From a virus, in the IMG/VR virus record IMGVR_UViG_3300036943_000626, positions 1 to 13,787 of that record: a stretch of DNA of 13,787 nt. One strand, 5' to 3'. Below the pieces are notes generated by a model that was not told the DNA's origin, did not search any database, and saw nothing but the letters and a program-made list of their open reading frames with translations. Position numbers and translations under genes: made by a program. This document shows positions 1 to 13,787 of the stretch, in pieces. Numbering within the stretch: the first letter of the stretch is position 1; each line of letters opens with the position of its first letter.

Positions 1-127
1 TAAGGCTTACAAATTCAGGTTTGGCTGTTCTTCGAATCCCGATTGCTGTCAATCATTACAAAAAGAAAACTGATGGCGAAAGAGTTGAGGAATCCCATTT
101 TTTTCAAGTTATTTTCTTTGGAAAACT
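1..127. repeat. Terminal overlap copy A, identical to 13661..13787 (127 nt); indicates circular closure or terminal redundancy with a unit length of 13,660 bp
   Basis: Compared base by base: taaggcttacaaattcaggtttggctg...attttctttggaaaact occurs at both window ends with no mismatch. Confidence 0.95.
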
Positions 128-368
128 TGCTGAAACTGTTGAAAAATACATGGTTAAAGGTCAAGTCATGCTTGTTGAAGGAAGATTATCAACCTCAAAA
201 TATACAGACAAAGAAGGGATTGAAAGATATACAACCGAGATAATTGCTGATACAATGCAAATGGGAGCTAAACCTATGAAAAATCAAAATTTTTCATCAC
301 CCGAAACATCACCTCAAAAAACCTCCGAACCTGACGACGATATAAAAATTGAAGATATACCATTTTAA
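1..368 (+). CDS. ssb: Single-stranded DNA-binding protein, 3' portion (codon phase: first full codon starts at base 3)
   Basis: OB-fold-like core (HFFQVIFFGKLAE...GQVMLVEGRLSTSKYTDKEG...TEIIAD), a Ser/Pro-rich linker, and an acidic C-terminal tip DDDIKIEDIPF resembling the bacterial SSB tip DDDIPF. Confidence 0.85.
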   Translation, partial: RLTNSGLAVLRIPIAVNHYKKKTDGERVEESHFFQVIFFGKLAETVEKYMVKGQVMLVEGRLSTSKYTDKEGIERYTTEIIADTMQMGAKPMKNQNFSSPETSPQKTSEPDDDIKIEDIPF

Positions 369-406
369 GATTTAAAAAAGTGTAGTATTAAAATAATTGA
401 GGAATA

Positions 407-613
407 ATGAAAAAAATAATAAAATCAACTCACAACTCAATGCCTCACATATTAGCTTCTTGTTGTTGTGGCTGGATGGGTGGAGGGAATAATAATATCA
501 CAGAAGCTAGGAGAGAGCTTTTCTCACATATGAGAAAAAATAATTGCAAAACAGCCAGATTAGAAATAGGGAGAGTTTCGCATTATGAGTTAATAATTAA
601 ATCAAAATTATGA
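407..613 (+). CDS. Hypothetical small early protein (68 aa, CCCGW motif)
   Basis: ORF with GAGGA 5 nt upstream of the ATG, the only clear Shine-Dalgarno in the genome. Its stop overlaps the next start (ATGA). Confidence 0.6.
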   Translation: MKKIIKSTHNSMPHILASCCCGWMGGGNNNITEARRELFSHMRKNNCKTARLEIGRVSHYELIIKSKL

Positions 614-840
614 GTTTTCAGCCTGCTGGTGGAAACCGACAAAATCCACACACTCCGCCACGTGGAAAAAAAATCTGCCCTTTTATGTCTAGCGGAAAAG
701 ATATTGTTCCTTGCTCTCCTGATTGTATGCTTTACAGAGAGGGAAAACAAGGATCAAAATATCAATGTCCATTTCAAGAATTACCAAATATGTCTTGGAA
801 TATGTCCGTTGCATTAAAAAATCATACTAACGGATTCTAA
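610..840 (+). CDS. Hypothetical Cys-containing small protein (76 aa; CPF..C...C..CPF spacing, possible metal-binding)
   Basis: ATGA-coupled to the upstream ORF and followed by a terminator. Four Cys arranged C-x11-C-x3-C-x13-C, with CPF repeated. Confidence 0.55.
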   Translation: MSFQPAGGNRQNPHTPPRGKKICPFMSSGKDIVPCSPDCMLYREGKQGSKYQCPFQELPNMSWNMSVALKNHTNGF

Positions 841-854
841 TTTTACCCCTATTT

Positions 855-891
855 AAAAAACCGCCCCTATTGGTCATTGAGGCGGTTTTTT
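855..891 (+). terminator. Intrinsic terminator closing the early operon
   Basis: aaaaaaccgcc / 15-nt loop / ggcggtttttt: an 11-bp stem with a T-run, 15 nt after the stop at 840. Confidence 0.75.
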
Positions 892-895
892 AATT

Positions 896-927
896 AAAAA
901 AAAACACCTCCGAAGAGGTGTTTTTTT
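896..927 (-). terminator. Intrinsic terminator for the minus-strand gene (bidirectional in form)
   Basis: A9-cacctc-cgaa-gaggtg-T7. On the minus strand the hairpin directly follows the stop at 931 and is followed by a U-run. Confidence 0.8.
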
Positions 928-930
928 CTT

Positions 931-1206
931 TTACATTTTTTGAACCAAATCTCCGTTGAAGACAACTGCTATTCCAAAATTTCTTTTTTCTTTTTCTTTT
1001 GTTTTTTTGTCTTTTGTTTCTCCAATTTTCCAAATTCTCACACCCTTTCCTTTTGCTCCAACCAATTTCAAGCCCAACATTCTTGCTTGAACAAAAGTGA
1101 TCCATTCGTTGCTTTTATATCCCTCATTTTCTTTGACTTCTTGAAGAACATCCTGATTTCTCCCTTGATACTCTTTTTTTGACATTTTGTTTATTTGTTG
1201 TTTCAT
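931..1206 (-). CDS. Small ArdC-N / DUF1738-like protein (putative ssDNA-binding or anti-restriction), 91 aa
   Basis: EGYKSNEWITFVQARMLGLKLVGAKGKGVRIW...IAVVFNGDLVQ resembles, from memory, the ArdC N-domain hallmark W-x-T-F-x-Q-A-x-x-L-G-x-x-V-x-K-G-x-K-G ... V-F-N-x-x-Q. It is the only minus-strand gene and has its own terminator. Confidence 0.5.
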   Translation of the reverse strand: MKQQINKMSKKEYQGRNQDVLQEVKENEGYKSNEWITFVQARMLGLKLVGAKGKGVRIWKIGETKDKKTKEKEKRNFGIAVVFNGDLVQKM

Positions 1207-1274
1207 TTTTTTTATTTAAATTTTTATTAAAAAAAATGTTTCATAGGCAATTTTCTTAATTCTTATGTCTGTTA

Positions 1275-1367
1275 TTAAACAACTGATTGCTTATATCAAA
1301 TCAAGGTGGAGATTGACGAACAGAGTGAAGTCAATACTACCTTGAATTGATATAAGCTGTTGTTAAA
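1275..1367. repeat. Long imperfect inverted repeat (about 93 nt, over 30 bp of pairing) in the divergent intergenic region
   Basis: gcttatatcaaatcaaggt (1289-1307) pairs with accttgaattgatataagc (1339-1357) with one mismatch. There is an inner attgac/gtcaat pair and an outer aacaac/gttgtt pair. Confidence 0.8.
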
Positions 1368-1393
1368 ATAAAAAGACTAAGAATTAAAAAAAC

Positions 1394-1422
1394 TTGACTT
1401 ATTATTTGCTTTAATTTAAAAT
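1394..1422 (+). promoter_or_regulatory. Sigma70-type promoter TTGACT-17-TAAAAT
   Basis: TTGACT at 1394-1399, a 17-nt spacer, TAAAAT at 1417-1422. It lies about 175 nt upstream of the 1599 ATG. Confidence 0.6.
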
Positions 1423-1457
1423 GTTGATAACTAAAGAAAGAAGAAGCAAGAAAGAAA

Positions 1458-1507
1458 GCTAGACATTCTTCTAGCGATCCTTTCGACTCGTCTAGCTAGA
1501 AGCTAGT
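1458..1507. promoter_or_regulatory. Cluster of CTAG-centred palindromes in the 5' leader (candidate operator or structured leader)
   Basis: gctaga-cattct-tctagc hairpin at 1458-1475, a perfect 10-bp palindrome tctagctaga at 1491-1500, gctagt at 1502, and actagac at 1538. Confidence 0.45.
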
Positions 1508-1598
1508 AAGCGAAACCTATTCTATGAGTTTTTTTTACTAGACTTTCTTCTCTCTTTCATTCTTTTTTTAAATTTTTTTAACAAACTAACATCTAACC

Positions 1599-2192
1599 AT
1601 GACTAAACCCGCAAACGAACCAAACGACAAACTTTCTCCCAAAAACTTGACTTCAACTTTCCCGAATTCTCCTCTCTGTCGTTCTTCTTGTATCACTTGC
1701 AGTTCTCCTTATTTACAAGAAATTCATAAAATGAGGTATGATGATAAAATGTATTTAAAAGATATTTCCGCGAAATTAGAAAAAGAATTTGGCGAAAAAA
1801 TCTCTTATTCTGCTTTACATAGGCATTTTACTAACTTTAATAAAAATATAAAAAGGGCTGTCGAAACTAAAATGATTAAATATCTTGAAGAAGATGTTGA
1901 CCAACGGGCGCAACATTCTGCTAAATTGACAACTTTGATTAATGCTATGTTTGACAAATTGGCTCAAAACTGGCAAGATGTTGCACCAACTATTGAAAAC
2001 TTGGAAAAATTGACAAAATTGAGATATTTGGTTATGGAAAATAAAATTTCAATGGGTGATTATGATGAACAAATTAAGTTGATTATTAAAAATGCTGAAA
2101 ATGTTGATGCAAGACAATTAAGTTTATTTTCCCCCGAAGCAATTACTCAAAAACCAGAAGAAGAAAACAGAGGGGTTGCTGACGAGCAATAA
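1599..2192 (+). CDS. Zn-ribbon + helix-turn-helix-like DNA-binding protein; positional candidate for small terminase subunit or late regulator
   Basis: CRSSCITC followed by YLKDISAKLEKEFGEKISYSALHRHFTNF (Cys cluster plus an IS..AL.RH HTH-like pattern seen in some phage TerS or regulator proteins), a coiled-coil-like middle and an acidic tail. It is the last ORF before TerL. Confidence 0.45.
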   Translation: MTKPANEPNDKLSPKNLTSTFPNSPLCRSSCITCSSPYLQEIHKMRYDDKMYLKDISAKLEKEFGEKISYSALHRHFTNFNKNIKRAVETKMIKYLEEDVDQRAQHSAKLTTLINAMFDKLAQNWQDVAPTIENLEKLTKLRYLVMENKISMGDYDEQIKLIIKNAENVDARQLSLFSPEAITQKPEEENRGVADEQ

Positions 2193-2230
2193 AACCTAAA
2201 AGGGGGTTTGGGGGAAGCCCCCATTAAGAA

Positions 2231-2292
2231 CCGCCGCTGAATTTTAAGGTTTTTTTCGAGGAGGGACGACGAGAAAAAAACCGTTAAGGCGG
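2231..2292. repeat. Stem-loop
   Basis: ggttttttt (2248-2256) pairs with aaaaaaacc (2274-2282), flanked by ttaa/ttaa and ccgcc/ggcgg. Confidence 0.7.
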
Positions 2293-2351
2293 AATGGAGG
2301 GGGTGAGCCGACCAGCGGGAGGCGAACAAGGAGCGTAGCGACCACCATTCC
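2291..2351. repeat. Stem-loop followed by the CCGACACACC tail
   Basis: ggaatggagg pairs with ccaccattcc (7+2 bp with one A.A mismatch). The loop carries GAGCGTAGCGACC. Confidence 0.6.
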
Positions 2352-2376
2352 CCGACACACCTTCGCCAAGGGGTAT

Positions 2377-2471
2377 GCGGGGAGGAAAGGAGGGGCTTGC
2401 CGGGCGAGAAAAAATAAGAAAAAGAGGAGCGAATGCGACCTTTTTCTTTTTTTCTCCTTTCCACTCCCCGC
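2377..2471. repeat. 95-nt two-tier hairpin with polypurine/polypyrimidine arms
   Basis: gcggggag..gaaag pairs with ctttcc.a.ctccccgc, and gagaaaaaataagaaaaagagg pairs with cctttttctttttttctc. The apical loop is agcgaatgcga. Confidence 0.75.
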
Positions 2472-2506
2472 AAAAAATGAGCGAATGACGAGTTTCAAAA
2501 CCCGAA

Positions 2507-2537
2507 CCTCCCCCGACCAAAGGCGGGGAGGGGGAGG
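2507..2537. repeat. Stem-loop
   Basis: cctccccc (2507-2514) pairs with gggggagg (2530-2537). Confidence 0.6.
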
Positions 2538-2546
2538 CAAAGTGAA

Positions 2547-2592
2547 GGGCGGGAGCGGAATTCAACAAAAACCTACATCTCCGCTCCCGCCC
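2547..2592. repeat. Stem-loop with a perfect 13-bp GC-rich stem
   Basis: gggcgggagcgga (2547-2559) pairs with tccgctcccgccc (2580-2592). Confidence 0.85.
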
Positions 2593-2687
2593 TGAACGGC
2601 AAGAGCGAACACCTTATTTTGAAATTTTTAAAACCAGTTACCCCCCTTGGGGGGGTTAGGGGGGGAATATGAAATAATTTTTTTATG

Positions 2688-2796
2688 TCGCACAACACAG
2701 ATTCTTGCGACATTATGGAAACAAACAAAAACCGACCCTCACAGGAAGCGGTTTTTGATTTGTTTCCAAATGTTTCGCAAAATCTATGTTGTGCGA
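2688..2796. repeat. 109-nt rod-like element: an outer helix of about 21 bp enclosing an 18-bp helix
   Basis: tcgcacaacacagattcttgcga (2688-2710) pairs with tcgcaaaatctatgttgtgcga (2775-2796) with one mismatch and one bulge. The inner pair is ggaaacaaacaaaaaccg (2717-2734) with cggtttttgatttgtttcc (2749-2767). Confidence 0.8.
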
Positions 2797-2801
2797 GTCA
2801 A

Positions 2802-2842
2802 GCCAATGAAACACAATATAAAATTTATAAAAATTCATTGGC
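2802..2842. repeat. Stem-loop
   Basis: gccaatgaa (2802-2810) pairs with ttcattggc (2834-2842); the loop is AT-rich. Confidence 0.7.
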
Positions 2843-2883
2843 GAAGACCTTGCATAAAAAAACACCTTGAGGGAGAGGGGTTT

Positions 2884-2908
2884 GGGGAGAACCGCAGTGG
2901 TTCTCCCC
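2884..2908. repeat. Stem-loop (10-bp stem, 5-nt loop)
   Basis: ggggagaacc-gcagt-ggttctcccc, followed by attttaaa. Confidence 0.8.
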
Positions 2909-2922
2909 ATTTTAAAGAGCGA

Positions 2923-2987
2923 GGGAAAAGAGGAAAAAAAACTGTTGTGTGTCTATCTTAACAACAGATTTTTTTGACTCTTTTCCC
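2923..2987. repeat. Long hairpin, paralog 1 (loop contains TATCTTA)
   Basis: gggaaaagag pairs with ctcttttccc, A-run with T-run, ctgttg with caacag. The loop is tgtgtctatcttaa. It is followed by GAGCCACCGC plus ttttatataaaaa. Confidence 0.85.
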
Positions 2988-3013
2988 GAGCCACCGCTTT
3001 TATATAAAAAAAT

Positions 3014-3080
3014 GAGCGTAGCGAACACCTTTTAAATATAAACTAATGGAGCGAAGCGACCACCTTTTATTATATAAAAA
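3014..3080 (+). repeat. Two tandem short units (35 and 32 nt), each with a GCGNAGC mini-hairpin, a GA(A/C)CACC tail and a TATA-type linker
   Basis: gagcgtagcgaacacc-ttttaaatataaactaatg (3014-3048) is followed by gagcgaagcgaccacc-ttttattatataaaaa (3049-3080). Confidence 0.75.
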
Positions 3081-3086
3081 GAGGGA

Positions 3087-3151
3087 GGGGATTTGAGAAA
3101 AAAAGACTGTTTCGCGTTTATCTTAGAAACAGCTTTTTTTCTCAATTCCCC
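3087..3151. repeat. Long hairpin, paralog 2 (loop contains TATCTTA)
   Basis: ggggatttgag pairs with ctcaattcccc, gagaaaaaaag with ctttttttctc, ctgtttc with gaaacag. The loop is gcgtttatctta. It is followed by GACCCACCGC plus ttaatataaaaa. Confidence 0.85.
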
Positions 3152-3178
3152 GACCCACCGCTTAATATAAAAAGAGGA

Positions 3179-3237
3179 GTGATATTAAAAAGCAAATGTC
3201 TTTTTTGGAAAAAAAGTCTTTTGCTTTTTAATATCAC
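3179..3237. repeat. Long hairpin with a perfect 18-bp outer stem
   Basis: gtgatattaaaaagcaaa pairs with tttgctttttaatatcac, followed by GACACACC plus tacttatataaaa. Confidence 0.85.
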
Positions 3238-3274
3238 GACACACCTACTTATATAAAAGATGAGCCAAAAATAG

Positions 3275-3318
3275 GGAAAAGGTAGTTGAGTTGGCGAAAC
3301 TACCTTTTCCTTTTTTTT
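3275..3318 (+). terminator. Strong intrinsic terminator at the 3' end of the hairpin array
   Basis: ggaaaaggtag - 14-nt loop - ctaccttttcc (perfect 11 bp) followed by T8. Confidence 0.8.
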
Positions 3319-3345
3319 GGCGAACACCTATTATTATGTTAAAAT
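3317..3345 (+). promoter_or_regulatory. Candidate extended -10 promoter for the TerL/structural operon
   Basis: TTGGCG (3317-3322), a 17-nt spacer, TGT-TAAAAT (3337-3345), about 25 nt upstream of the TerL ATG. Confidence 0.45.
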
Positions 3346-3370
3346 GCAAATATAAATTTAAAACTAAACT

Positions 3371-4774
3371 ATGATAGCATTAAAAGATAAAATTAGTTTT
3401 GCAACTAAATTCTTTGATGTTAATGAAGAATATTTAAAACTTAATAGACACTGGCAGTCTTTTGATTATTATGTTTTGGCTGGTGGTGATCCTGTTAAAT
3501 ATGAAAATATAGGTTCACACCCTGGGCAATTAGATTTTTTGATAAACTCAATACACACTGAAAACTTATTACATTCTGGTAACGGATTTGGTAAGACAGA
3601 TATTATTGCACGCAAGCACTTAGTTAAACACTTAATTCATTTTTATGATCCACTCTTAAAGAATATAGAATATAAAACTTTGAATATTGCTATTACTAGA
3701 GAGCAGGCTGAGTTAGTTCAAGATAGGATAATTCAGTTAGTTCGCATTTCTCCTTTGCTTGGTGATTGGTTTATTAAGAGATATGTTAAGTCGCCAGTTC
3801 CTGAAATAGAATTTATTAATGGTGGTAAGATAGAATTTAAAACTACTAAACGAAAGGCTGAATCTGTTGAAGGTCATCAGTATGGCTATATCTCTGCTGA
3901 TGAGATAGCACTTGAGCCACACTTAGAATTTATTAGAGAAAAGATATTGTTGCCACGATTAAGAAAGTTTGAAGATGGTCAATTAGATTGGTTTGCTACT
4001 CCGAAAGGATTTAATTCATATTATAGAATCATGCAACAGATAAAGAGATCTGGTGGCTTTGTTCGTTCTGGTTCTAGTTATGAGAATCCACACATCAATC
4101 ATAAACTTTTAGATTATATGATTAAGAATTGGAGTAAAGATAAAGTTAGACAAATTGTTTATGGTGAGTTTGTTGATAATGCTCAATTTATGTTTGCTAG
4201 TAGGATTGATAAACTTATTGATTATGATCTAGGCTTTGAGAAAGTTAAACCTGATTCTAAATATATTGAGGGTTGGGATTTGGCAAGAGGTAAGAAAGGA
4301 GAGCAAGCCGACAAGACTGTTGGTTTTAGAATAAGAAAAGGAAAGCCTAATGTTATTGTTGATTGTTTTGCTTTTCAACTTCCTTGGACTGAAGAAGAAA
4401 GATTAAATTTATTAAAAGATAATAAAGAAAAACATAATTCATCTACTGAAAGAGAAATAAGAAACAAACAAAAAGAATCTAATTCAGAATGTTATATAGA
4501 TTCAACTGGTGTTGGTGATACTTTATTTGGTATGCTTCAAGATGTTGCCCAACCTGTTGACTTTCGAGGAAAAAAAGATAAAATACTAGAGCATGCACAA
4601 GCTGTTATTGATGCCGGACTTATTAAATGTCCTTTTATTCCCGAGCTTGTGGAAGAATTAACTACTTATGAAAGAGATGATAAAAATCTACCAACTGATT
4701 ATGTTATGGCTTTTTGTATCGCTTGCTATTCTATTCCTGTATTGGATTCGTTTATTGGAACTGTTGACATATAA
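3371..4774 (+). CDS. terL: Terminase large subunit
   Basis: Walker A HSGNGFGKTD, Walker B-like YGYISADEIA, and C-terminal nuclease-type acidic motifs IEGWDLARG and YIDSTGVGD. 467 aa, directly upstream of the portal gene. Confidence 0.9.
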   Translation: MIALKDKISFATKFFDVNEEYLKLNRHWQSFDYYVLAGGDPVKYENIGSHPGQLDFLINSIHTENLLHSGNGFGKTDIIARKHLVKHLIHFYDPLLKNIEYKTLNIAITREQAELVQDRIIQLVRISPLLGDWFIKRYVKSPVPEIEFINGGKIEFKTTKRKAESVEGHQYGYISADEIALEPHLEFIREKILLPRLRKFEDGQLDWFATPKGFNSYYRIMQQIKRSGGFVRSGSSYENPHINHKLLDYMIKNWSKDKVRQIVYGEFVDNAQFMFASRIDKLIDYDLGFEKVKPDSKYIEGWDLARGKKGEQADKTVGFRIRKGKPNVIVDCFAFQLPWTEEERLNLLKDNKEKHNSSTEREIRNKQKESNSECYIDSTGVGDTLFGMLQDVAQPVDFRGKKDKILEHAQAVIDAGLIKCPFIPELVEELTTYERDDKNLPTDYVMAFCIACYSIPVLDSFIGTVDI

Positions 4775-4798
4775 TTAAATAAATTTTAATATGTTAAT

Positions 4799-5011
4799 AT
4801 GCAAGATTTAAATTCTTTATCTTTTTTGTCTTTAAAAAAAATGACAAAAAAAAACAAACAAGATTCAAAAAAAATTCTTACTTCCCTTTATACTGATTTA
4901 AACCATAACCGATTTTATATTGTCCGTTTTAAAAAAATTCCTAAATTTATTCCAAACTTTTTTTACAAATTTTTAATAAAAAGAATTCTTAATTTAGATT
5001 ATAAATGTTAA
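4799..5011 (+). CDS. Doubtful small basic ORF (70 aa)
   Basis: Lys-rich and low complexity. It overlaps the portal start (ATGTTAA), which would fit translational coupling, but composition alone could generate it. Confidence 0.3.
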   Translation: MQDLNSLSFLSLKKMTKKNKQDSKKILTSLYTDLNHNRFYIVRFKKIPKFIPNFFYKFLIKRILNLDYKC

Positions 5012-6342
5012 ACAAACAAGAAGTTTCCGAAGAATTACGGACTAAAATTCAATCAGTTAAATCTCTTACTAATAAGCGTGAGAATTATTTTAATAAATAT
5101 TTTTCTTTTGCTTTTAAAGGAAATCAATGGACTCAATCTGAATATAATGAATTAGTTGCAAAGGGTGTTGATCCAGTTACTCTTAATAATTCCGAAGATT
5201 ATTTTGAAGAATATTTATCAAAATTATTTCCTCGAGATCCAAATACCGGGACTTTGTCTATTGGTGTTTCTGCAAAAGATTTGGTCAATCGTGAAAAATA
5301 TGAAAATAAAATTCTCGAACAATATCGAGAAAATAATTTTCCTAGTGTTTTACTTGAACAAGGTCAAAATTTTTTAATTGGCGGTGCTGGTTGTTTTTAT
5401 TTTCCTCCCGACGGTTTTGGTGGTGCTAATATAATTTCTGTTGATCCTCGTTTTGTTTATCTTGAATGGTCTGGTCGTAGATTACTTTGGTTTGCCTACT
5501 ATAATGAAGATACTGAAACCTATACTTATGTTGATAAGGATTTTATTATAACTTTAGATAAAAATTTTGAAATTATTTCTGATCAAACTCATAAACTCGG
5601 CTTTATTCCTGTTGCTTGGGTTCCAAATATGCCTCAATCTCACACAATGGAGGGAAAAACAAAAATTGCTTCAATTTATGATTTAGATCGATCAATAAAT
5701 AAAAACTTTACTAATTACAATAAACGAATTGACGAAAATACCGAACCTCATCAAGCTGTTTATTCTGATAATGCTAAGGTAAAATCAATTAAAAGAGGAA
5801 AAGGAAAAACTACTATTTTACCTGTTGGCTCAAAAATGGAATATCTTGAACTCAAAGAGGGTTCTGAAATTCAAAATTACAATGAATATTTACAAGAAAA
5901 AATTCGGGCCAAGACTGGCCTTATAGATACTGGCGGTGCTGTTAAAACTGCAATTTCTGGTTTGTCTTTATCTTTTCAATATTCTGGGATGTTAAGCCGA
6001 ATTGCTTTTATGCGAGTTTATTGGGATCATGCTTTTAGACAATTAAATGAAGCTATTTTAACTTATGCTTTCCGTTCTGGTAATTTTGAAACTGATCCTA
6101 TCTATAATGAATCAATCGCAGTTGATATTTCTCAAAAAGTCAAAGATGTTATTGCTCAAGTTGAGGCTGGAATTATGAGTAGAAAAGATGCTATTGATAC
6201 TTTGCGAGGTTCTGAAAATTCTGAACAGAAATTAAAAGAAATTCTTGACGAGGAGAAAAAAATAAATGATAATAAACCAAAGGAACAAATAAAACAAGAT
6301 TTAATAATTAATAAAAATAAAGATGGATCAAAAAATTCTTGA
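5005..6342 (+). CDS. Portal protein (putative)
   Basis: 445 aa, located between TerL and the scaffold/capsid genes; called from size and position. Confidence 0.7.
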   Translation: MLNKQEVSEELRTKIQSVKSLTNKRENYFNKYFSFAFKGNQWTQSEYNELVAKGVDPVTLNNSEDYFEEYLSKLFPRDPNTGTLSIGVSAKDLVNREKYENKILEQYRENNFPSVLLEQGQNFLIGGAGCFYFPPDGFGGANIISVDPRFVYLEWSGRRLLWFAYYNEDTETYTYVDKDFIITLDKNFEIISDQTHKLGFIPVAWVPNMPQSHTMEGKTKIASIYDLDRSINKNFTNYNKRIDENTEPHQAVYSDNAKVKSIKRGKGKTTILPVGSKMEYLELKEGSEIQNYNEYLQEKIRAKTGLIDTGGAVKTAISGLSLSFQYSGMLSRIAFMRVYWDHAFRQLNEAILTYAFRSGNFETDPIYNESIAVDISQKVKDVIAQVEAGIMSRKDAIDTLRGSENSEQKLKEILDEEKKINDNKPKEQIKQDLIINKNKDGSKNS

Positions 6343-6910
6343 CACATTCAGAAAGCAATTTGCCCTGGATGAGGAAGCTCTGCCTGATTCAATGTCTACT
6401 GAAGATTTCAGCAAATTCATTGAAAATCAAGCCGGAAAACTTTTTGTCAAACCTCAAGATTTGAAAAATCTACAGAGGAAATTGAGTGAAAAAGATTTAA
6501 TGATTAAGGAATTGTCCGAAAAAAAATCTGACGACAAAAACCCTGATCCGAAACCTGATTCCAAAATTTCCGAACTAGAAAATCAAATTAAAACTCTGAC
6601 TGAATCAATTACCAAAATGACAAATTCTAGTCGAGTTGAAAAATTAACTGAAATGTATCCCGATATTTCACCTGAAATTTTGGCAAATACTAGCGACGAA
6701 AATCTTGAAAAAGTCGTTGAAAGTCAAAGGAAAATTAGTAAAAAGATTTATAAAGATTCTAAAGTTTTTACTTTACCTCAATATAAATCTATTTCTGATG
6801 TTGATAAGGCTATAGAAAAAGTTAAGGCTGATAAAAATTTATCTGCCATGGAAAAAGCCTCTGAAAGTTTGAAACTCCAAAGACTGAAAACGAGTTTTGA
6901 TTCTGAATAA
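6323..6910 (+). CDS. Scaffolding protein (putative)
   Basis: 195 aa, highly charged with a Lys/Glu/Asp-rich helical character, located between portal and major capsid. It overlaps the portal 3' end by 20 nt. Confidence 0.6.
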   Translation: MDQKILDTFRKQFALDEEALPDSMSTEDFSKFIENQAGKLFVKPQDLKNLQRKLSEKDLMIKELSEKKSDDKNPDPKPDSKISELENQIKTLTESITKMTNSSRVEKLTEMYPDISPEILANTSDENLEKVVESQRKISKKIYKDSKVFTLPQYKSISDVDKAIEKVKADKNLSAMEKASESLKLQRLKTSFDSE

Positions 6911-6941
6911 TTTTAATATAATCAATTAAAAAATTAAAAAA

Positions 6942-8081
6942 ATGTTTAATACTCAAAGTGTTCGAGAGAGAGAATCTCTTTCGGAGCAAGTGGATATTTT
7001 ACTGGCCAATGATCGAGACATGAAATTTTTGTCTTTTGTTAATCATTTGCGAGCTCCAAAATCTCCAATCATTGCTCAAAAACATGAATGGTTAGATATT
7101 TCCGCTCGACCTGTTGAAGTTACTTCTGGAACTTCTGGAACTGGTGTTTTGTGGGATTCTGCTTCTGCAACTGCTGATTTACCAATTAATTCATCTCATA
7201 CTGCTAAATTGCGAGAAGGTGATATTTTGCTTTTGGGGGATGGTTTGGAACAAGTTATTGTTAAATCTGTTGATACCGCGGCTAACACTATCGATGTTTA
7301 TGCTCGAGGTCATGGTTCAACTGATGGCGCTGCTCAAGGTGAAACTGCTTTCACAATCAAGATAATCGGAAATGCCCAAATCGAAGATGATGATCCAATA
7401 GATGCTTATTTCCAAGGATTCACTGCTGGATATAACTATACTCAAATTTTTGAAGATGTTGCTGATCAATCAGGAACAATTCGAAGATCTAGAGTAAGTG
7501 GAGGTGATACTCTTGATACTGCAATTATGGTTAAATTAAAGGAATTGATGAGGCAGTTGAATCGAGCTTGTATTTATGGAGTTAGGAATCTTGATACAAC
7601 TAACAAAATTGGCACAATGGGTGGTGTGAGAGAATTTTTCACAACTACCAAAAACATTAACGCCGCTTTGACTCTTGCTTTGCTTGAGGCTACTGTTGTT
7701 GAGGCTATAGACGCTGGTTGTAATCCTTCTGCAATTCATGCAAGTCCTGATATAATTTCTAAAATTTCTCAACTTTTCGTTGGAAATGTCAGATATCAAA
7801 CTACTGATAGACGAGCTGGTCTTTCTGTGGCTGTTGTGAATATGTCTGGTTTGGATATTATGCTTTTGCCTGATAGAGATGTTCCAAGTGGAGAAATGTT
7901 GTTAGTTGATCATGATAGAGTTTTCCTTGGTGCTTTAAATGGTAATGAGTCTGGGGATTGGGCTGTTTATGAGACTATGAACAAGAACTTGAAACAATGG
8001 GAGAAACAAGTTGGTGGAGAGTTCACAATGGAAGTTCGAAGCCCGGCTGGTGCTGGAGTTAGGGCTTATAATATAAGCTAG
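6942..8081 (+). CDS. Major capsid protein (putative HK97-fold)
   Basis: 379 aa, follows the scaffold gene, has less AT-skewed codon usage consistent with high expression, and is followed by a hairpin. Confidence 0.8.
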   Translation: MFNTQSVRERESLSEQVDILLANDRDMKFLSFVNHLRAPKSPIIAQKHEWLDISARPVEVTSGTSGTGVLWDSASATADLPINSSHTAKLREGDILLLGDGLEQVIVKSVDTAANTIDVYARGHGSTDGAAQGETAFTIKIIGNAQIEDDDPIDAYFQGFTAGYNYTQIFEDVADQSGTIRRSRVSGGDTLDTAIMVKLKELMRQLNRACIYGVRNLDTTNKIGTMGGVREFFTTTKNINAALTLALLEATVVEAIDAGCNPSAIHASPDIISKISQLFVGNVRYQTTDRRAGLSVAVVNMSGLDIMLLPDRDVPSGEMLLVDHDRVFLGALNGNESGDWAVYETMNKNLKQWEKQVGGEFTMEVRSPAGAGVRAYNIS

Positions 8082-8097
8082 AATTGAATGGTTTTTT

Positions 8098-8121
8098 GGC
8101 GGTTTTTCCATAAAAAACCGC
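8098..8121 (+). terminator. Hairpin after the capsid gene (terminator or attenuator candidate)
   Basis: gcggttttt-ccat-aaaaaaccgc; the downstream T-run is weak. Confidence 0.45.
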
Positions 8122-8151
8122 TTCTAAAATCATTAAATTTAAATTAAAATT

Positions 8152-8346
8152 ATGGCAATTTTTAGACGAAGAAGTAAAGATTTAGAGGGTATTTCCAGTA
8201 CTGTTGTTGCTGGAAAAGAAATCAAGTTAATGGGTAATCAAGTTTATAAAACTAAAAATCCCAAAGAAATAAAGGCTTTAAGAGAGGATAGTGTTTTTTT
8301 TGAACTTCCTGTTAAACTTAAAGTAAAAGCTACTAAAAAAGATTAA
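8152..8346 (+). CDS. Hypothetical small structural-module protein (64 aa)
   Basis: ORF in the structural operon with basic termini. Confidence 0.55.
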   Translation: MAIFRRRSKDLEGISSTVVAGKEIKLMGNQVYKTKNPKEIKALREDSVFFELPVKLKVKATKKD

Positions 8347-8355
8347 TAAAATATC

Positions 8356-8958
8356 ATGACATTTAATGAAATGGAGGCCAAAATTCAGGCTCAAATTGAC
8401 GACACAACCACAAGTATTGACGAAATGATTTATAATTCCATTCGGTATTTATATAATTATTTTGCGCTTGAAGATTGGGATGACGCTTTGGTGACTGTTG
8501 CTGATCAAAATTTTATTGAAACTGGCCTCTCTGATGTTATTGATGTTGATGTTTTGATTTATAATGGTGAACAGATTGAAAAACTTGATGAAGATGATTT
8601 TGATAAAATTCCTCAATTTGTTGATAATAATGTTAGGCGATTTTATTTTCTTCAAGGTAAAATTTATTTTACTTTCACTCCGACAGAATCTGATTTAGAG
8701 GTTAAGGTTTTGAAGAAATATCAGTTTACTTTAGCAACTACAACAAATTCTCTAGATGTTCCTCCTGAACTTCTCGAACTGGTTGAACTTGGGGCTATTT
8801 CAAGATATTATTTATATTTACTTTCATTAAATGCAAGATCAAGAGAAGACTTGCCTGATGTCAAACCTGATGAGGTTCGGCGGGCTAAAAAGAATGTTGA
8901 TGATAGTTATAATTATCTTCTTAATGAGCTTCGTAATAATTCCAATTATGCGTTATAA
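8356..8958 (+). CDS. Hypothetical structural protein (possible head-tail adaptor, by position)
   Basis: 200 aa, acidic, located between the capsid and tail genes. Confidence 0.6.
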   Translation: MTFNEMEAKIQAQIDDTTTSIDEMIYNSIRYLYNYFALEDWDDALVTVADQNFIETGLSDVIDVDVLIYNGEQIEKLDEDDFDKIPQFVDNNVRRFYFLQGKIYFTFTPTESDLEVKVLKKYQFTLATTTNSLDVPPELLELVELGAISRYYLYLLSLNARSREDLPDVKPDEVRRAKKNVDDSYNYLLNELRNNSNYAL

Positions 8959-10468: not shown

Positions 10469-11293
10469 ATGTTTAATGGTCGTTTTTATAGATTGTTTGT
10501 TAAGATTTACGAAGCCCTTCTTAAAATTGCTGATAATATTTTAGCAACTACTTATAACGATTCTTGGATAAATATTACTTCTTCTGTTACTTATTCAAGT
10601 GTTGATGATCCAACTGGAGTTATAACTATTGAAGAGGATTTAACTGGAGTTCTTTCAGTTGGGATGAGAATAAAATTCACTAATGGCGGAAACACAATTT
10701 ACGGAATTATTACTAAAGACCCAACCTATTCCTCACCAAACACAACAATAACTTTTCTACACGAAATTAACCCAACAGATTCTCAAGCTCTTCACTTACT
10801 AGCTAATTCAGCAATTACAGATGTCTATTATTCACACCAAAAAGCACCGTTTGGTTTTCCTTTGGAGAAGAATAAATGGACGGTTTATATTTCTAGTTCT
10901 GGGCAAATAGACCAATTAAACCCGACACAAAATACTTGGTATAATATTAATTCGGATTCCTTGTCTATACCGATAGGAACTTATTTGGTGTATTATTCCA
11001 CCCACGCTGGTATCGAGACATCTGCAGATTATATCTACGATATGGAGGTGACTTTATCTACTGGCTCTTCTTCAGAAAGTGATGGAGATTTATCCGCTGG
11101 GTTTGGCTCTGATATTTCGGGAAATACAGCGTTAAAACGTATGCGTTCAACTGTTTCTCGACAAAAAGAAAAGACTTTCGCTAGCAAAACAACTGTTTAT
11201 CTAAATTATAGAACAATAAGAAGTTCTATAGATAAAATTAGTAAAATAGGAGAAGTACCAACTGTTATTAGAGCAACTTCTTCCTATCTGTAA
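10469..11293 (+). CDS. Putative tail or receptor-binding protein (274 aa)
   Basis: The ATG immediately follows the upstream TAA. The protein is Ser/Thr/Asn-rich and beta-like, and is the last structural gene. Confidence 0.55.
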   Translation: MFNGRFYRLFVKIYEALLKIADNILATTYNDSWINITSSVTYSSVDDPTGVITIEEDLTGVLSVGMRIKFTNGGNTIYGIITKDPTYSSPNTTITFLHEINPTDSQALHLLANSAITDVYYSHQKAPFGFPLEKNKWTVYISSSGQIDQLNPTQNTWYNINSDSLSIPIGTYLVYYSTHAGIETSADYIYDMEVTLSTGSSSESDGDLSAGFGSDISGNTALKRMRSTVSRQKEKTFASKTTVYLNYRTIRSSIDKISKIGEVPTVIRATSSYL

Positions 11294-11413
11294 TATAATT
11301 AAATAATCGAAGATAATAACTAATACTCATAAACAACACAGAAACCAGAACACCAGGTTCAAAACTAACAAAATGTTCGGAGATAATATGTATGTAAAAA
11401 ATAATTAAAAACA

Positions 11414-11536
11414 ATGAAACTGTTATACTTTTTATTAGGATGGTGTAAATATTATAATAAATGCGGTTCAGATTGCCACACTTGTCGAAATGGTGGCGGT
11501 TCGTACTGTGGTAAATTTAGAGAATTAAATAAATAA
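11414..11536 (+). CDS. Candidate 40-aa Cys-rich peptide with a hydrophobic N-terminus (below the ORF-track cutoff)
   Basis: MKLLYFLLGWCKYYNKCGSDCHTCRNGGGSYCGKFRELNK, read by hand. It ends 9 nt before the endolysin ATG. Confidence 0.35.
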   Translation: MKLLYFLLGWCKYYNKCGSDCHTCRNGGGSYCGKFRELNK

Positions 11537-11545
11537 TTCAAAATC

Positions 11546-12181
11546 ATGAATCTATCAAAACCATTTCAAGGATCTTATCCAATTACTCAATATTTTGGTG
11601 AAAAATATGAATATAATGGAAAGGTATTAAATCACGAGGGTGTAGATTTTGCGACGCCCAAAAATACCCCTATTATTGCTCCTATGGATGGAGTAGTATA
11701 TAGAATCGAAAAATGGAGGCTAACTGGCTATGGAAAAACAGTCTATGTTCGAGGTTTAGACGGTGTTTCTACTTATTTTGTTGCTCATTTAAACTCTATT
11801 AATGTTGAATTAAATCAAAGAGTTTATAAAAATGGGACTATACTCGGCCACTCTGGCCGGACTGGATTCTGGCGAGGTAAAACTGGCTATCATTTACATT
11901 TTTCCTTGTTAATCAATAATAAATATGTTGATCCATTAAATTATATGGAAGGCTATAAAAATAATTTAATAAACAACGAAGAATTAAAAAAGCTCGATGT
12001 AAAGAATAATGACGACCGATATTATAAAGTTAAAAAAGGTGAAAGTCTTTGGATTATAGCTGGAAAACTTTATGGAGATAATAACAAATGGTTTGAAATT
12101 TATAATGAAAATAAAAAATTAATTGGTGATAATCCTGATCTAATTTACCCTGGGCAGAGATTAAGACTACCAAAAAAATGA
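11546..12181 (+). CDS. Endolysin: M23 (LytM-type) metallopeptidase plus a C-terminal LysM domain
   Basis: M23 motifs HEGVDF (H-x-x-x-D) and GYHLHFS (H-x-H). The C-terminus YYKVKKGESLWIIAGKLYGDNNKWFEIYNENKKLIGDNPDLIYPGQRLRLP is LysM-like. Confidence 0.85.
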   Translation: MNLSKPFQGSYPITQYFGEKYEYNGKVLNHEGVDFATPKNTPIIAPMDGVVYRIEKWRLTGYGKTVYVRGLDGVSTYFVAHLNSINVELNQRVYKNGTILGHSGRTGFWRGKTGYHLHFSLLINNKYVDPLNYMEGYKNNLINNEELKKLDVKNNDDRYYKVKKGESLWIIAGKLYGDNNKWFEIYNENKKLIGDNPDLIYPGQRLRLPKK

Positions 12182-12447
12182 ATATAAATTTTACTGCAAA
12201 TTATCCAATAAAAAATTTTGACGAACTGGAAAATTATTTAAAAATTCCAAGAAAATTTAATGGTATAACAGTCAATTTTTTTTACAAAGAAAATTATGTT
12301 AATATCTGGTTTCATCATAATTCTTTTGTTCTTGAAATTGATAATGATAATGAATTTGATCCTCCCTCTATTTATAAGGAACTTGGGACTTCTTTTGATG
12401 TCGTTGACGAGATTAAAAAATTTTTTGAAAAGATTGACAAAAAATAA
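12178..12447 (+). CDS. Hypothetical protein (89 aa)
   Basis: ATGA-coupled to the endolysin gene. Confidence 0.6.
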   Translation: MNINFTANYPIKNFDELENYLKIPRKFNGITVNFFYKENYVNIWFHHNSFVLEIDNDNEFDPPSIYKELGTSFDVVDEIKKFFEKIDKK

Positions 12448-12474
12448 TAAATTGTTAAAATTAAATAGAGAAAC

Positions 12475-12594
12475 TTAAAAATTAAAGGAGAGAAAAAAAT
12501 TTTTTGGCGCAGAAAAATCTTTTAGTATCTCGGGAGTATAAAGATATTCTACAAAAATACTAGTTATAGAATATCCCTCTCCTTTAGTTTTTAA
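12475..12594 (+). promoter_or_regulatory. 120-nt two-tier stem-loop ending 9 nt before the holin-like ATG
   Basis: 18-bp closing helix 12475-12492 / 12577-12594 (10 perfect bp taaaggagag/ctctccttta plus an A/T extension with one T.G pair). The inner helix is gatattcta (12543-12551) with tagaatatc (12567-12575). Confidence 0.6.
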
Positions 12595-12603
12595 TTTCTT
12601 TTT

Positions 12604-12786
12604 ATGAATAACGATGTAGGCGATCACCCTTTAGGCTTACCAAAAGGCAGTATTCGAGCAATACTGGTTTTAATTTTGACAGTTTTTTTTGCTATCTGTA
12701 TTTATGTTGAAAAAGAAATTCCCAAAGATGTCGGAATTGTTTGGATTTCAATGTTGAGTTATTATCTTGGTCATAGATCTCCTTGA
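12604..12786 (+). CDS. Holin-like small membrane protein (60 aa, two hydrophobic segments)
   Basis: IRAILVLILTVFFAICIYV and VGIVWISMLSYYLG, located next to the endolysin module. Confidence 0.55.
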   Translation: MNNDVGDHPLGLPKGSIRAILVLILTVFFAICIYVEKEIPKDVGIVWISMLSYYLGHRSP

Positions 12787-12811
12787 CAAATTTTTTCTTT
12801 TTCTATATAAT
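12783..12811 (+). promoter_or_regulatory. Perfect-consensus sigma70 promoter TTGACA-17-TATAAT
   Basis: TTGACA at 12783-12788 overlaps the holin TGA, followed by a 17-nt spacer and TATAAT at 12806-12811. Confidence 0.7.
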
Positions 12812-12873
12812 CAAATTGCAATAAGAAATTTTTTAAGTTTTGTTTTTTTCTTTTTGCTTTTTCTATCTTTTTG

Positions 12874-12915
12874 AAATTAAAATCCCGTTTCCTTCATTTT
12901 CGGGATTTTAATTTT
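12874..12915 (+). terminator. Intrinsic terminator (perfect 14-bp stem)
   Basis: aaattaaaatcccg - 13-nt loop - cgggattttaattt; the 3' arm is T-rich. Confidence 0.7.
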
Positions 12916-12918
12916 CTC

Positions 12919-12957
12919 TTGACAAAAATTCCCATTTTAGTAAACTTATAATATAAT
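12919..12957 (+). promoter_or_regulatory. Second early promoter region
   Basis: TTGACA (12919-12924), a 16-nt spacer, TAAACT (12941-12946), followed by two overlapping TATAAT hexamers (12947-12957). It shares cttgacaaa and tataatcaa with the 12783 promoter. Confidence 0.5.
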
Positions 12958-13100
12958 CAATGACCACACTTTTTTGCAAGCGATTGTCGATCACTTTCAA
13001 ACAAGTGGTAAAATTATGTTTATTATTTTTTTAAAACATCTTCTTATTCTAAAGCCTAGTTTTTAGGTGGTTTTTTTGATTTTAATAAATAATTTTAAAA

Positions 13101-13274
13101 ATGAAAAAAAACAGGTATGCTCTTTTATGGACTTCTTTTGGTTATGTTTTGACCAATGGAAAATCTCGTTGCGGTTACTTCAAAAATAAGTTTGAAGTTC
13201 AAAAATTTCTTTTGCTTTTAAAAAAGGAATTAGGCGATGAGAAAATGAATGTTTTTAGTTTAATAAATAAATAA
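13101..13274 (+). CDS. Hypothetical small early protein (57 aa, below the ORF-track cutoff)
   Basis: MKKNRYALLWTSFGYVLTNGKSRCGYFKNKFEVQKFLLLLKKELGDEKMNVFSLINK, read by hand. The stop lies 2 nt before the next ATG. Confidence 0.5.
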   Translation: MKKNRYALLWTSFGYVLTNGKSRCGYFKNKFEVQKFLLLLKKELGDEKMNVFSLINK

Positions 13275-13276
13275 TT

Positions 13277-13612
13277 ATGAAAAAACAAAAAATTAATTAT
13301 GTCGAATTGGTCGGCATGCAAAAAGAAAATACTGAAAGACATGGAGATAAAATTTATAATCTGATGATGGTTTTTCAATTTTCTTCTGATCGATTCTTTA
13401 AAAAATTTAATAAAAAATTCAAGAGAGATGTTGGTGAATTTTTCAAAATTAAATCTATTGAAGAATCAGATTTCCCTCTTGAAATTAAATTTTTGGGTTA
13501 TAAAGGAAAAAATACTGTTGGCTTTTATATTGATGATATTCTTGCTAATCTTGGCTGGACTTTTTTTCAAGAACACATTGAGGCATTTATCATTAACAAA
13601 ATAAAAAAATGA
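13277..13612 (+). CDS. Hypothetical early protein (111 aa)
   Basis: ORF tightly packed between the 57-aa ORF and ssb (ATGA overlap). Confidence 0.65.
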   Translation: MKKQKINYVELVGMQKENTERHGDKIYNLMMVFQFSSDRFFKKFNKKFKRDVGEFFKIKSIEESDFPLEIKFLGYKGKNTVGFYIDDILANLGWTFFQEHIEAFIINKIKK

Positions 13613-13787
13613 ACTACAACAAAACAATTCTAGCCGGAAGAATTTGTATTGATCCAAAAGTAAGGCTTACAAATTCAGGTTTGGCTGTTCTTCGAATCCC
13701 GATTGCTGTCAATCATTACAAAAAGAAAACTGATGGCGAAAGAGTTGAGGAATCCCATTTTTTTCAAGTTATTTTCTTTGGAAAACT
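13609..13787 (+). CDS. ssb: Single-stranded DNA-binding protein, 5' portion (runs off the window end; the true gene is 13609..13660 joined to 1..368, 420 nt, 139 aa)
   Basis: ATG at 13609 overlaps the TGA of the upstream ORF (ATGA). It translates MNYNKTILAGRICIDPKVRLTNSGLAVLRIPIAVNHY... and is in frame with the 21..368 ORF through the repeat. Confidence 0.85.
   Translation, partial: MNYNKTILAGRICIDPKVRLTNSGLAVLRIPIAVNHYKKKTDGERVEESHFFQVIFFGK
13661..13787. repeat. Terminal overlap copy B, identical to 1..127
   Basis: Same comparison as copy A. A length of 127 is typical of a maximum-k de Bruijn assembly overlap on a circular or permuted template. Confidence 0.95.

Follow-up and report, generated by a model that had tools for sequence, protein, structure and literature searches.

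Phi29-like phages encode a family-B polymerase and a terminal protein, phi29 itself having a packaging RNA (pRNA) and no TerS, and to our knowledge the mini-podophages known so far are all protein-primed. They include the smallest tailed phages isolated, at 11.6–11.7 kb (PMC7762592). Small tailed phages without replication enzymes are also already known (PMC11348598, PMC7302621, PMC5513430): some Caudoviricetes are without almost all replication genes (PMC11348598), and the small, cultured lytic actinophage siphoviruses, namely Rhodococcus RRH1 (14.27 kb), Arthrobacter cluster AN (~15.5 kb) and Microbacterium cluster EE (17.0–17.5 kb), consist almost entirely of virion and lysis genes, with a few regulators, few non-structural genes and no integrase (PMC7302621, PMC5513430). 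The complete genomes published for phages of Candidate Phyla Radiation (CPR) bacteria, or Patescibacteria, measure 36–55 kb (PMC11310336). The subject of the present analysis is IMG/VR virus record IMGVR_UViG_3300036943_000626, a stretch of 13,787 nucleotides (nt), here called the window, which we consider probably to be the genome of an autonomous and probably strictly lytic miniature podophage whose DNA is copied by the host replisome, and which belongs to a phage family tied to Patescibacteria.

The search for homologues of the window's major capsid protein among 5.8 billion proteins returned 129 matches at E<=1e-10, and the longest contigs carrying them cluster at 12–15.7 kb. Eighteen close relatives, chosen by capsid alignment (identity at least 37%), make up with the window a set of 19 genomes with a common gene order: terS, gap, terL, small basic protein, portal, scaffold, capsid, in some members a LamG protein, small protein, adaptor, nozzle, fibre, holin-like protein, M23 hydrolase and small early genes. 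The capsid gave no tblastn match in 50,697 GenBank phage records, and the family appears to be a lineage without a cultured relative; an incomplete literature search found no description of it, which is weak evidence that the family is undescribed.

Every open reading frame (ORF) of the window, and 150 accessory or unassigned ORFs of at least 65 amino acids (aa) from the 19 genomes, were scanned against Pfam and PHROGs. No window ORF matched a polymerase, primase, helicase, Rep or integrase, and the 150 family ORFs yielded no polymerase, primase, helicase, Rep/HUH, initiator, integrase, recombinase, partition or repressor family. The families seen among the latter were ArdcN (3), SSB (2, plus one SSB_1), DUF3310 (2), C1q, Peptidase_C39, polysaccharide deacetylase and Zn ribbons, and among the non-core proteins the larger ones are all encoded in the tail region. 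The largest unassigned ORF of the window has 111 aa; before its profile matched beta-propellers, the 545-aa protein c7 was the sole unassigned window ORF big enough to conceal an enzyme. The preliminary description of this DNA had listed polymerase, primase, helicase, Rep and integrase as absent, a claim that held for the window and extends to the 19 genomes, and the small ORFs for which it proposed profile searches gave no match (407-840, 13101-13274 and 13277-13612) or only a weak small-terminase/Mu gp27 match (1599-2192). At the sensitivity available, the family thus appears to be without replication and integration enzymes. DnaA boxes, sought with the E. coli consensus, gave 7 scattered matches (at most one mismatch) against 4.6 expected.

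The virion and lysis modules appear complete for a podophage (Table 1). The TerS-like protein c4, kept in 16 genomes and lying upstream of the hairpin array and terL wherever both genes are on the contig, has weak but concordant matches to Pfam Phage_Mu_Gp27 (7.6e-5) and the small terminase phrog_426 (1.7e-4). Its fold gave nothing in Foldseek at E<=0.001, in VIA-align the G20C small terminase ranked second, with a noise-level Z of 6.4, and its homologues among the 5.8 billion proteins are from this phage family only and all hypothetical. The large terminase is only 24–27% identical to T4-like and haloarchaeal terminases. It had been described as TerL with a nuclease domain; the profiles support TerL, while Pfam matches only the ATPase domain and a nuclease is suggested by the length and by PHROG_2 coverage to residue 454. 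The capsid profile matches the SU10 capsid 7z45 and VP1 9in6, and the portal, capsid and SSB named at the outset were each confirmed by profile matches. The scaffold-like protein c1 had no Pfam or PHROGs family match. The c7 profile, built from 14 members, matches beta-propellers of the PDB (Tako8, 1.7e-14; sortilin), and of the 14 genomes with c7, 13 have it after the adaptor; by likeness to T7-type tails, we take a beta-propeller protein in this position to be the nozzle of short-tailed phages. Scans of the window against Pfam and PHROGs gave no tube, sheath or tape-measure match, and since adaptor, nozzle and fibre are present a short tail is likely. Two-transmembrane (TM) holin-like proteins lie on either side of the hydrolase. 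With TerL, portal, HK97-fold capsid and tail genes all found, the window is assigned by its gene content to Caudoviricetes.

On the reading favoured here, host RNA polymerase would transcribe a five-gene early operon from two strong promoters after entry, the host replisome would copy the phage DNA, and the phage would add DNA-handling accessories only. The operon, delimited by promoter consensus matches, would comprise the 57-aa ORF, the 111-aa ORF, SSB, the 68-aa ORF and the Cys4 protein c10, and would end at 859-930; no phage RNA polymerase was found in the window. From the promoter-like site upstream of terS, the gene order is terS, array, terL, structural genes and lysis genes. Bacterial SSBs recruit primosome and repair proteins through an acidic tip motif, and the window SSB has an acidic C-terminal tail with the tip DIPF (DIAF, similarly, in relative L002), which may be of the kind that docks these host proteins. 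In some members an ArdC-N-type single-stranded DNA (ssDNA) binder would contribute, and tiny zinc-finger or helix-turn-helix (HTH) proteins may mark the start site. TerS and TerL would then cut and package concatemers or circles, probably by a headful mechanism that yields a circular map, into a small capsid that, judged from genome length, would be of T=3 class.

The ArdC-like protein of the preliminary description stands as regards its ArdC-N domain, which is a ssDNA-binding domain; the metalloprotease domain is absent. Its gene is the only one on the minus strand of the window and is bracketed by terminators. It is not a relic, because ArdC-N-only genes of 96 aa, over the Pfam cut-off, recur on the sense strand in L031 (7370-7657) and L033 (14925-15212). 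In the early region of other family members, HTH (c16) and Zn-ribbon (c22, c28) proteins are found instead.

On the strongest rival reading, replication is not wholly outsourced: a novel initiator or recruiter among the conserved tiny proteins would bind a phage origin and load the host helicase there, much as lambda O/P do on a larger scale. This is possible, if on balance doubtful. The candidates are c10, c4, the 111-aa beta-barrel and the HTH and Zn-ribbon proteins that relatives have in the early region. Of these, c10 closes the early operon in the window and is found shortly upstream of terS in those relatives that possess it; its eight family members (alignment A4) all keep four cysteines, spaced C-x11-C-x3-C-x13-C, together with a conserved SISW motif. 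It had no PDB or Pfam match, its Atlas matches are phage hypothetical clusters only, and it might be a late-gene regulator or DNA-binding factor; its fold model (predicted local distance difference test score 52) was unusable. The second candidate, c4, combines an invariant Cys/His motif with an HTH and lies upstream of an array with 21 same-strand copies of an 11-mer that could equally be an iteron. For the 111-aa ORF no sequence in the PDB matched, and the Atlas model shows a generic small beta-barrel and nothing like a replicase fold. Against this rival, none of the candidates resembles the initiator families of Pfam, PHROGs or the PDB, no early protein is common to all members, and the only matches of c4, weak as they are, are to small terminases in two libraries.

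The cis element on which host-run replication might act is most readily sought between terS and terL, where every co-oriented genome has an ORF-poor gap of 0.66–1.66 kb. Besides the window, such arrays lie in L002 (9452-10588) and in the gaps of L003, L004, L007, L028-L034, L039 and L109. The window array folds with a z-score of -14.5, against +0.9 for a coding control, and all 12 gaps of co-oriented genomes score from -3.5 to -16.4 relative to dinucleotide shuffles, against -3.3 to +1.6 for coding controls of the same length. In 12/12 gaps the sense strand folds more stably than its complement, and in 10/12 it has more G.U pairs; the window array is an exception as regards G.U pairs, its stems being near-perfect Watson-Crick. 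On their sense strand the gaps hold 23 copies of the mini-hairpin GCGNAGC, against none on the opposite strand, a density about 17-fold that of the rest of the genomes. The 11-mer GAGCGNAGCGA has 21 copies in the family, all within the gap and all on the terS/terL sense strand, with only 2 occurrences in ~87 other loci. In L035 the terS-gap-terL block as a whole runs opposite to the head genes, with GAGCGNAGCGA still on the terS/terL sense strand, and in L036 and L038 the block is likewise inverted.

G-run motifs are confined to the array and to its sense strand in the window (4) and in L002 (11), while most of the other relatives lack them altogether, and the few seen elsewhere are isolated and lie on either strand. 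Tandem duplications of a ~55-nt unit with a G6-TTT-G5 hairpin motif were also seen in L002 (10090-10520). Conservation between gaps is patchy and frameless, with tblastx matches in several frames and on both strands, a pattern to be expected of conserved non-coding DNA; no ORF cluster in the gap is common to the genomes. Protein-free, RNA-primed replicons of ColE1 type have a primer RNA II with an antisense RNA I, and at the origin a hybrid of G-rich RNA with C-rich template. The search of the window against Rfam (E<=1) returned only sub-threshold hairpin look-alikes and no plasmid copy-control RNA, and boxA was not enriched in the window.

These features indicate that the array is a conserved cis element, read single-stranded or in one orientation; it may work as RNA, as ssDNA or as an oriented site for protein binding, and the excess of G.U pairs leans towards an RNA role. 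Hairpins with a GNA triloop have exceptional stability as DNA and are a recurrent feature of single-strand origins. Our first choice, made tentatively, is that the array is a cis-acting start or packaging (pac) site; the AT-rich early-promoter region (12787-13100) is a second candidate. It is unlikely, in our judgement, that the array forms a protein-free replicon with an RNA- or hairpin-primed start of ColE1, single-strand-initiation or primosome-assembly type, in which SSB-coated DNA would expose the GCGNAGC mini-hairpins to host primase, PriA or RNA polymerase and the array would possibly be the packaging site as well. Such a replicon would explain how the family could do away with all replication proteins. 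If true, this would be an initiation mode undescribed for tailed phages.

The host link comes from a search of a genome collection with one genome per species (185,579 species), in which five close relatives were found, all on stand-alone contigs of 8.7–14.8 kb. The five metagenome-assembled genomes (MAGs) that bear them measure 0.6–1.5 Mb, four being named Patescibacteria, Parcubacteria or Moraniibacteriota, and the NCBI names on other homologues agree with this link; priA is over its curated cut-off in three of the five, which are incomplete MAGs. One Moraniibacteriota bin (G005) holds two distinct mini-phage contigs, C13 (L007; 13,769 nt) and C71 (L109; 13,590 nt), with capsids ~65% identical; L109 is circularly permuted, with terL split across its ends. 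A related MAG contains a larger siphophage (L110/L111; G024:C6, 25,437 nt) with tail tube, tape measure, hub and an SU10-type capsid, which has in common with the mini-phage L003 a LamG gene (38% identity) and a 143-aa gene (68%), an overlap suggestive of the exchange expected between phages of one host group. The LamG gene belongs to c13, a Laminin_G_3/concanavalin-like protein of ~230 aa between capsid and adaptor in L003, L005, L028 and L031-L034, absent from the window, which may be a capsid decoration or adhesion protein.

These phages might instead be temperate or persistent without a recombinase of their own, by host Xer-type integration or as plasmid-like episomes. A capsid homologue with 51% identity (P0024 / P0183; NTW89581.1) lies on contigs of 65,856 and 114,284 nt attributed to a Moranbacteria MAG, further capsid homologues lie on 41.6-kb, 25-kb and 22.8-kb contigs, and repeated co-binning with host MAGs suggests like coverage and composition. 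We nevertheless judge such a lifestyle improbable: neither a repressor nor a partition or recombinase family turned up in the 19 genomes, each of the five close relatives from the species collection is a stand-alone contig, and the single long contig inspected proved to be a different, larger phage.

A satellite or helper-dependent element, similar to P4 (PMC7762592) or to a capsid-forming phage-inducible chromosomal island (cf-PICI) and borrowing replication or virion parts, would account for the small size and the lack of replication enzymes, and the larger siphophage with two common genes in a related MAG also speaks for it. This is highly improbable, because nothing for particles or lysis is missing and the hallmarks of satellites are absent: the window encodes an adaptor, nozzle, fibre, hydrolase and holin-like protein of its own and is without the integrase, primase-helicase and repressor typical of satellites, all copies in the genome collection are free contigs and not islands, and cultured phages of like content are autonomous (PMC7302621). 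Of the two explanations first offered for the missing enzymes, replication outsourced to the host therefore fits and is the best reading, while a satellite is at odds with the full head, tail and lysis set and with the lack of integrase and primase.

The preliminary description took the window for a complete tailed-phage genome of 13,660 bp with an exact 127-nt end overlap and an intact ssb frame across it, and this is borne out. Positions 1-127 and 13661-13787 are 100% identical, leaving a unit of 13,660 nt, and the frame 13609..13787 runs on into 3..368 to give an intact SSB of 139 aa. The protein P0121 (139 aa), from other JGI contigs, is 98% identical to the last 59 codons of the window and 96% to the first 121, and a member of its cluster sits on a 13,812-nt contig; because P0121 spans the same junction on independent contigs, the junction is contiguous in nature. 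The record is classed by IMG/VR as having direct terminal repeats and by CheckV as 100% complete. There are nine syntenic circular assemblies of 11.9–15.5 kb, with junctions at differing points of the conserved gene order, six of them inside genes. The 127-nt overlap recurs at different map positions in four relatives (L028, L034, L036 and L039), the other circular relatives having end overlaps of 125, 114, 69 and 25 nt; as 127 nt is a common final assembler k-mer, we read the overlap as the mark of a circular assembly path and not as a physical terminal repeat. Read from this overlap, the molecule would be circular, or circularly permuted and concatemeric. That the contig is instead an incomplete fragment with a coincidental or internal end repeat is scarcely credible, having in its favour nothing beyond the general weakness of short-read assemblies and against it an exact, k-mer-length overlap, an intact gene over the junction that is confirmed on other contigs, nine circular relatives with the same gene set and, among ~100 homologues, no close-relative contig longer than 15.7 kb save a few unexplored long ones.

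Several points weigh against a host-replicated, autonomous phage of Patescibacteria. The absence of profile matches is not the absence of function, and about eight small ORFs are without assignment, two of the fold models being poor or uninformative. SSB is present only in the window and L002 within the family and is therefore an accessory, not the general solution of the family; it was also uninformative as a host marker, its nearest named relative (43%) being from a Betaproteobacteria MAG and not from Patescibacteria. That the array inverts together with terS and terL agrees with a role in packaging or as a transcript no less well than with an origin, and the 51%-identity capsid on the 65.9-kb and 114-kb contigs means that integrated or larger relatives may exist. 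Topology and physical ends are read from the assembly. Host prediction through CRISPR spacers, as proposed earlier, was unsuccessful: looking for spacer-like matches by nucleotide sequence in 400 Patescibacteria genomes turned up AT-rich noise and two 23-mers at chance level, nothing more, so that the assignment to Patescibacteria, which is plausible, comes from binning and gene sharing.

Table 1. Features of the 13,787-nt window, in order of position
Feature	Position	Strand	Remarks
Assembly overlap	1..127	.	Duplicate of 13661-13787; marks circular map, 13,660-nt unit
SSB gene, remainder (139 aa in total)	3..368	+	Pfam SSB E 6e-23; phrog_44 E 2.5e-31
68-aa early ORF	407..613	+	No Pfam or PHROG match
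76-aa Cys4 protein (c10)	610..840	+	Last gene of predicted early operon in window
Two back-to-back terminator-like hairpins	859..930	.	End early operon and antisense ArdC-N gene
ArdC-N-only protein, 91 aa	931..1206	-	Pfam ArdcN E 1.9e-9; phrog_7245
Intergenic region	1207..1598	+	Promoter-like TTGACT-17-TAAAAT (1394-1422); hairpins upstream of terS
TerS-like protein (c4)	1599..2192	+	Cys/His motif, HTH, long helices, conserved C-terminal tail
ORF-free hairpin array, 1,178 nt	2193..3370	+	GC-richer, strand-specific; candidate origin, pac site or structured RNA
Large terminase	3371..4774	+	Pfam Terminase_6N; phrog_2 E 3e-27
70-aa basic protein (c11)	4799..5011	+	Conserved between terL and portal
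Portal, SPP1 type	5005..6342	+	SPP1_portal / phrog_64
Scaffold-like protein (c1)	6323..6910	+	Assigned by position; between portal and capsid in 18 genomes
Major capsid protein, SU10 type	6942..8081	+	Pfam SU10_MCP (PF17236) E 1.5e-36
64-aa protein (c5)	8152..8346	+	Conserved between capsid and adaptor genes
Head-tail adaptor, SU10 type	8356..8958	+	Pfam SU10_adaptor (PF24175), 29.8 bits, over cut-off
Beta-propeller tail nozzle candidate (c7), 545 aa	8831..10468	+	True start may be downstream of 8831
Tail fibre candidate (c9), 274 aa	10469..11293	+	Common N-terminal anchor, variable C-terminus, 11 members
Peptidoglycan hydrolase, M23 peptidase + LysM	11546..12181	+	Profile matches
89-aa ORF	12178..12447	+	No Pfam or PHROG match
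Holin-like protein (c17), 60 aa	12604..12786	+	Two TM; family cluster
Two tandem sigma-70-type early promoters	12783..12957	+	Consensus match; first is perfect TTGACA-17-TATAAT
57-aa early ORF	13101..13274	+	No Pfam or PHROG match
111-aa early ORF	13277..13612	+	Predicted small beta-barrel
SSB gene, N-terminal part	13609..13787	+	Continues at window position 128; P0121 spans junction

The window has 20–21 credible protein genes (~81% coding), close to the figure of about 22 given before. Genetic code table 11 was adequate; under table 4 the large ORFs were unaltered and nothing convincing opened in the array. No tRNA or tmRNA genes were found in the window. Both early promoters have the 10-mer ATATAATCAA at their -10 regions, with a hairpin (12874-12914) between them. 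The homologue of the fibre candidate c9 in L037 (5803-8010) reaches 736 aa through long collagen-like G-x-x repeats and has its C-terminal domain in common with the window fibre.

What appears to be new is a short-tailed lineage with an SU10-type capsid and no recognisable replication enzymes, together with the association of such mini-phages with CPR bacteria and the conserved hairpin array, a well-defined cis element. At 11.9–15.5 kb the family is near the smallest known tailed phages (11.6 kb), and such genomes have lengths at which the 'missing' T=3 capsids of tailed phages are predicted (PMC7762592). A short-tailed phage can, it would seem, dispense with the protein-primed polymerase of other mini-podophages, leaving a near-minimal gene list for a self-sufficient tailed virus of ~20 genes for virion, lysis and DNA-binding accessories. 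The question that follows is how a host with so reduced a genome can be brought to copy foreign DNA.

Among known systems, the cf-PICI and P4 satellites measure 10–15 kb and may have genes for capsid, portal and terminase. Such satellites bring an integrase and a primase or replicase and are without tails or capsids of their own, whereas the window encodes tail and lysis proteins, and neither integrase nor primase was found in it. The SU10/phiEco32-like phages (Kuravirus) have capsid and adaptor proteins of the same SU10 Pfam families as the window, although the SU10 capsid is remote, at E 1e-3 even with a profile; their genomes of ~77 kb encode their own replication and transcription factors, in contrast to the window, with its 13,660-nt unit in which no replication genes were found.

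The protein-primed mini-podophages (Salasmaviridae, Rountreeviridae, Mycoplasma phage P1 and Salmonella phage astrithr; 11.6–20 kb) are of like size class and also have a short tail. They differ in that no polymerase or terminal protein was found in the window, which has a TerS-like gene, and in that the map of the window is circular, with a direct overlap and a gene over the junction, whereas phi29-like genomes are linear, with inverted terminal repeats and protein-capped ends. No Rfam family reached threshold for a phi29-type pRNA, and the structured array lies inside the packaging module. The premise from which the missing enzymes first drew attention, that tiny tailed phages carry a protein-primed polymerase, is true of phi29-like podophages and not of the 14–17.5-kb actinophage siphoviruses (PMC7302621, PMC5513430).

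Those actinophages are alike in size and bare gene content and form the best functional precedent for host-run replication; the RRH1 genome reportedly holds essentially structural and lysis genes only. They are siphoviruses of Actinobacteria with tape-measure tails and a protease-scaffold-capsid fusion, whereas the window has a short tail, separate capsid and scaffold genes, relatives in Patescibacteria bins and a 1-kb hairpin array between terS and terL, and the capsid search of the GenBank phage records showed no sequence similarity between the two. The published CPR phages have the same putative host group, and the LamG/concanavalin-like genes reported in them also occur in relatives of the window (PMC11310336), a family whose genomes are about one-third of their size.

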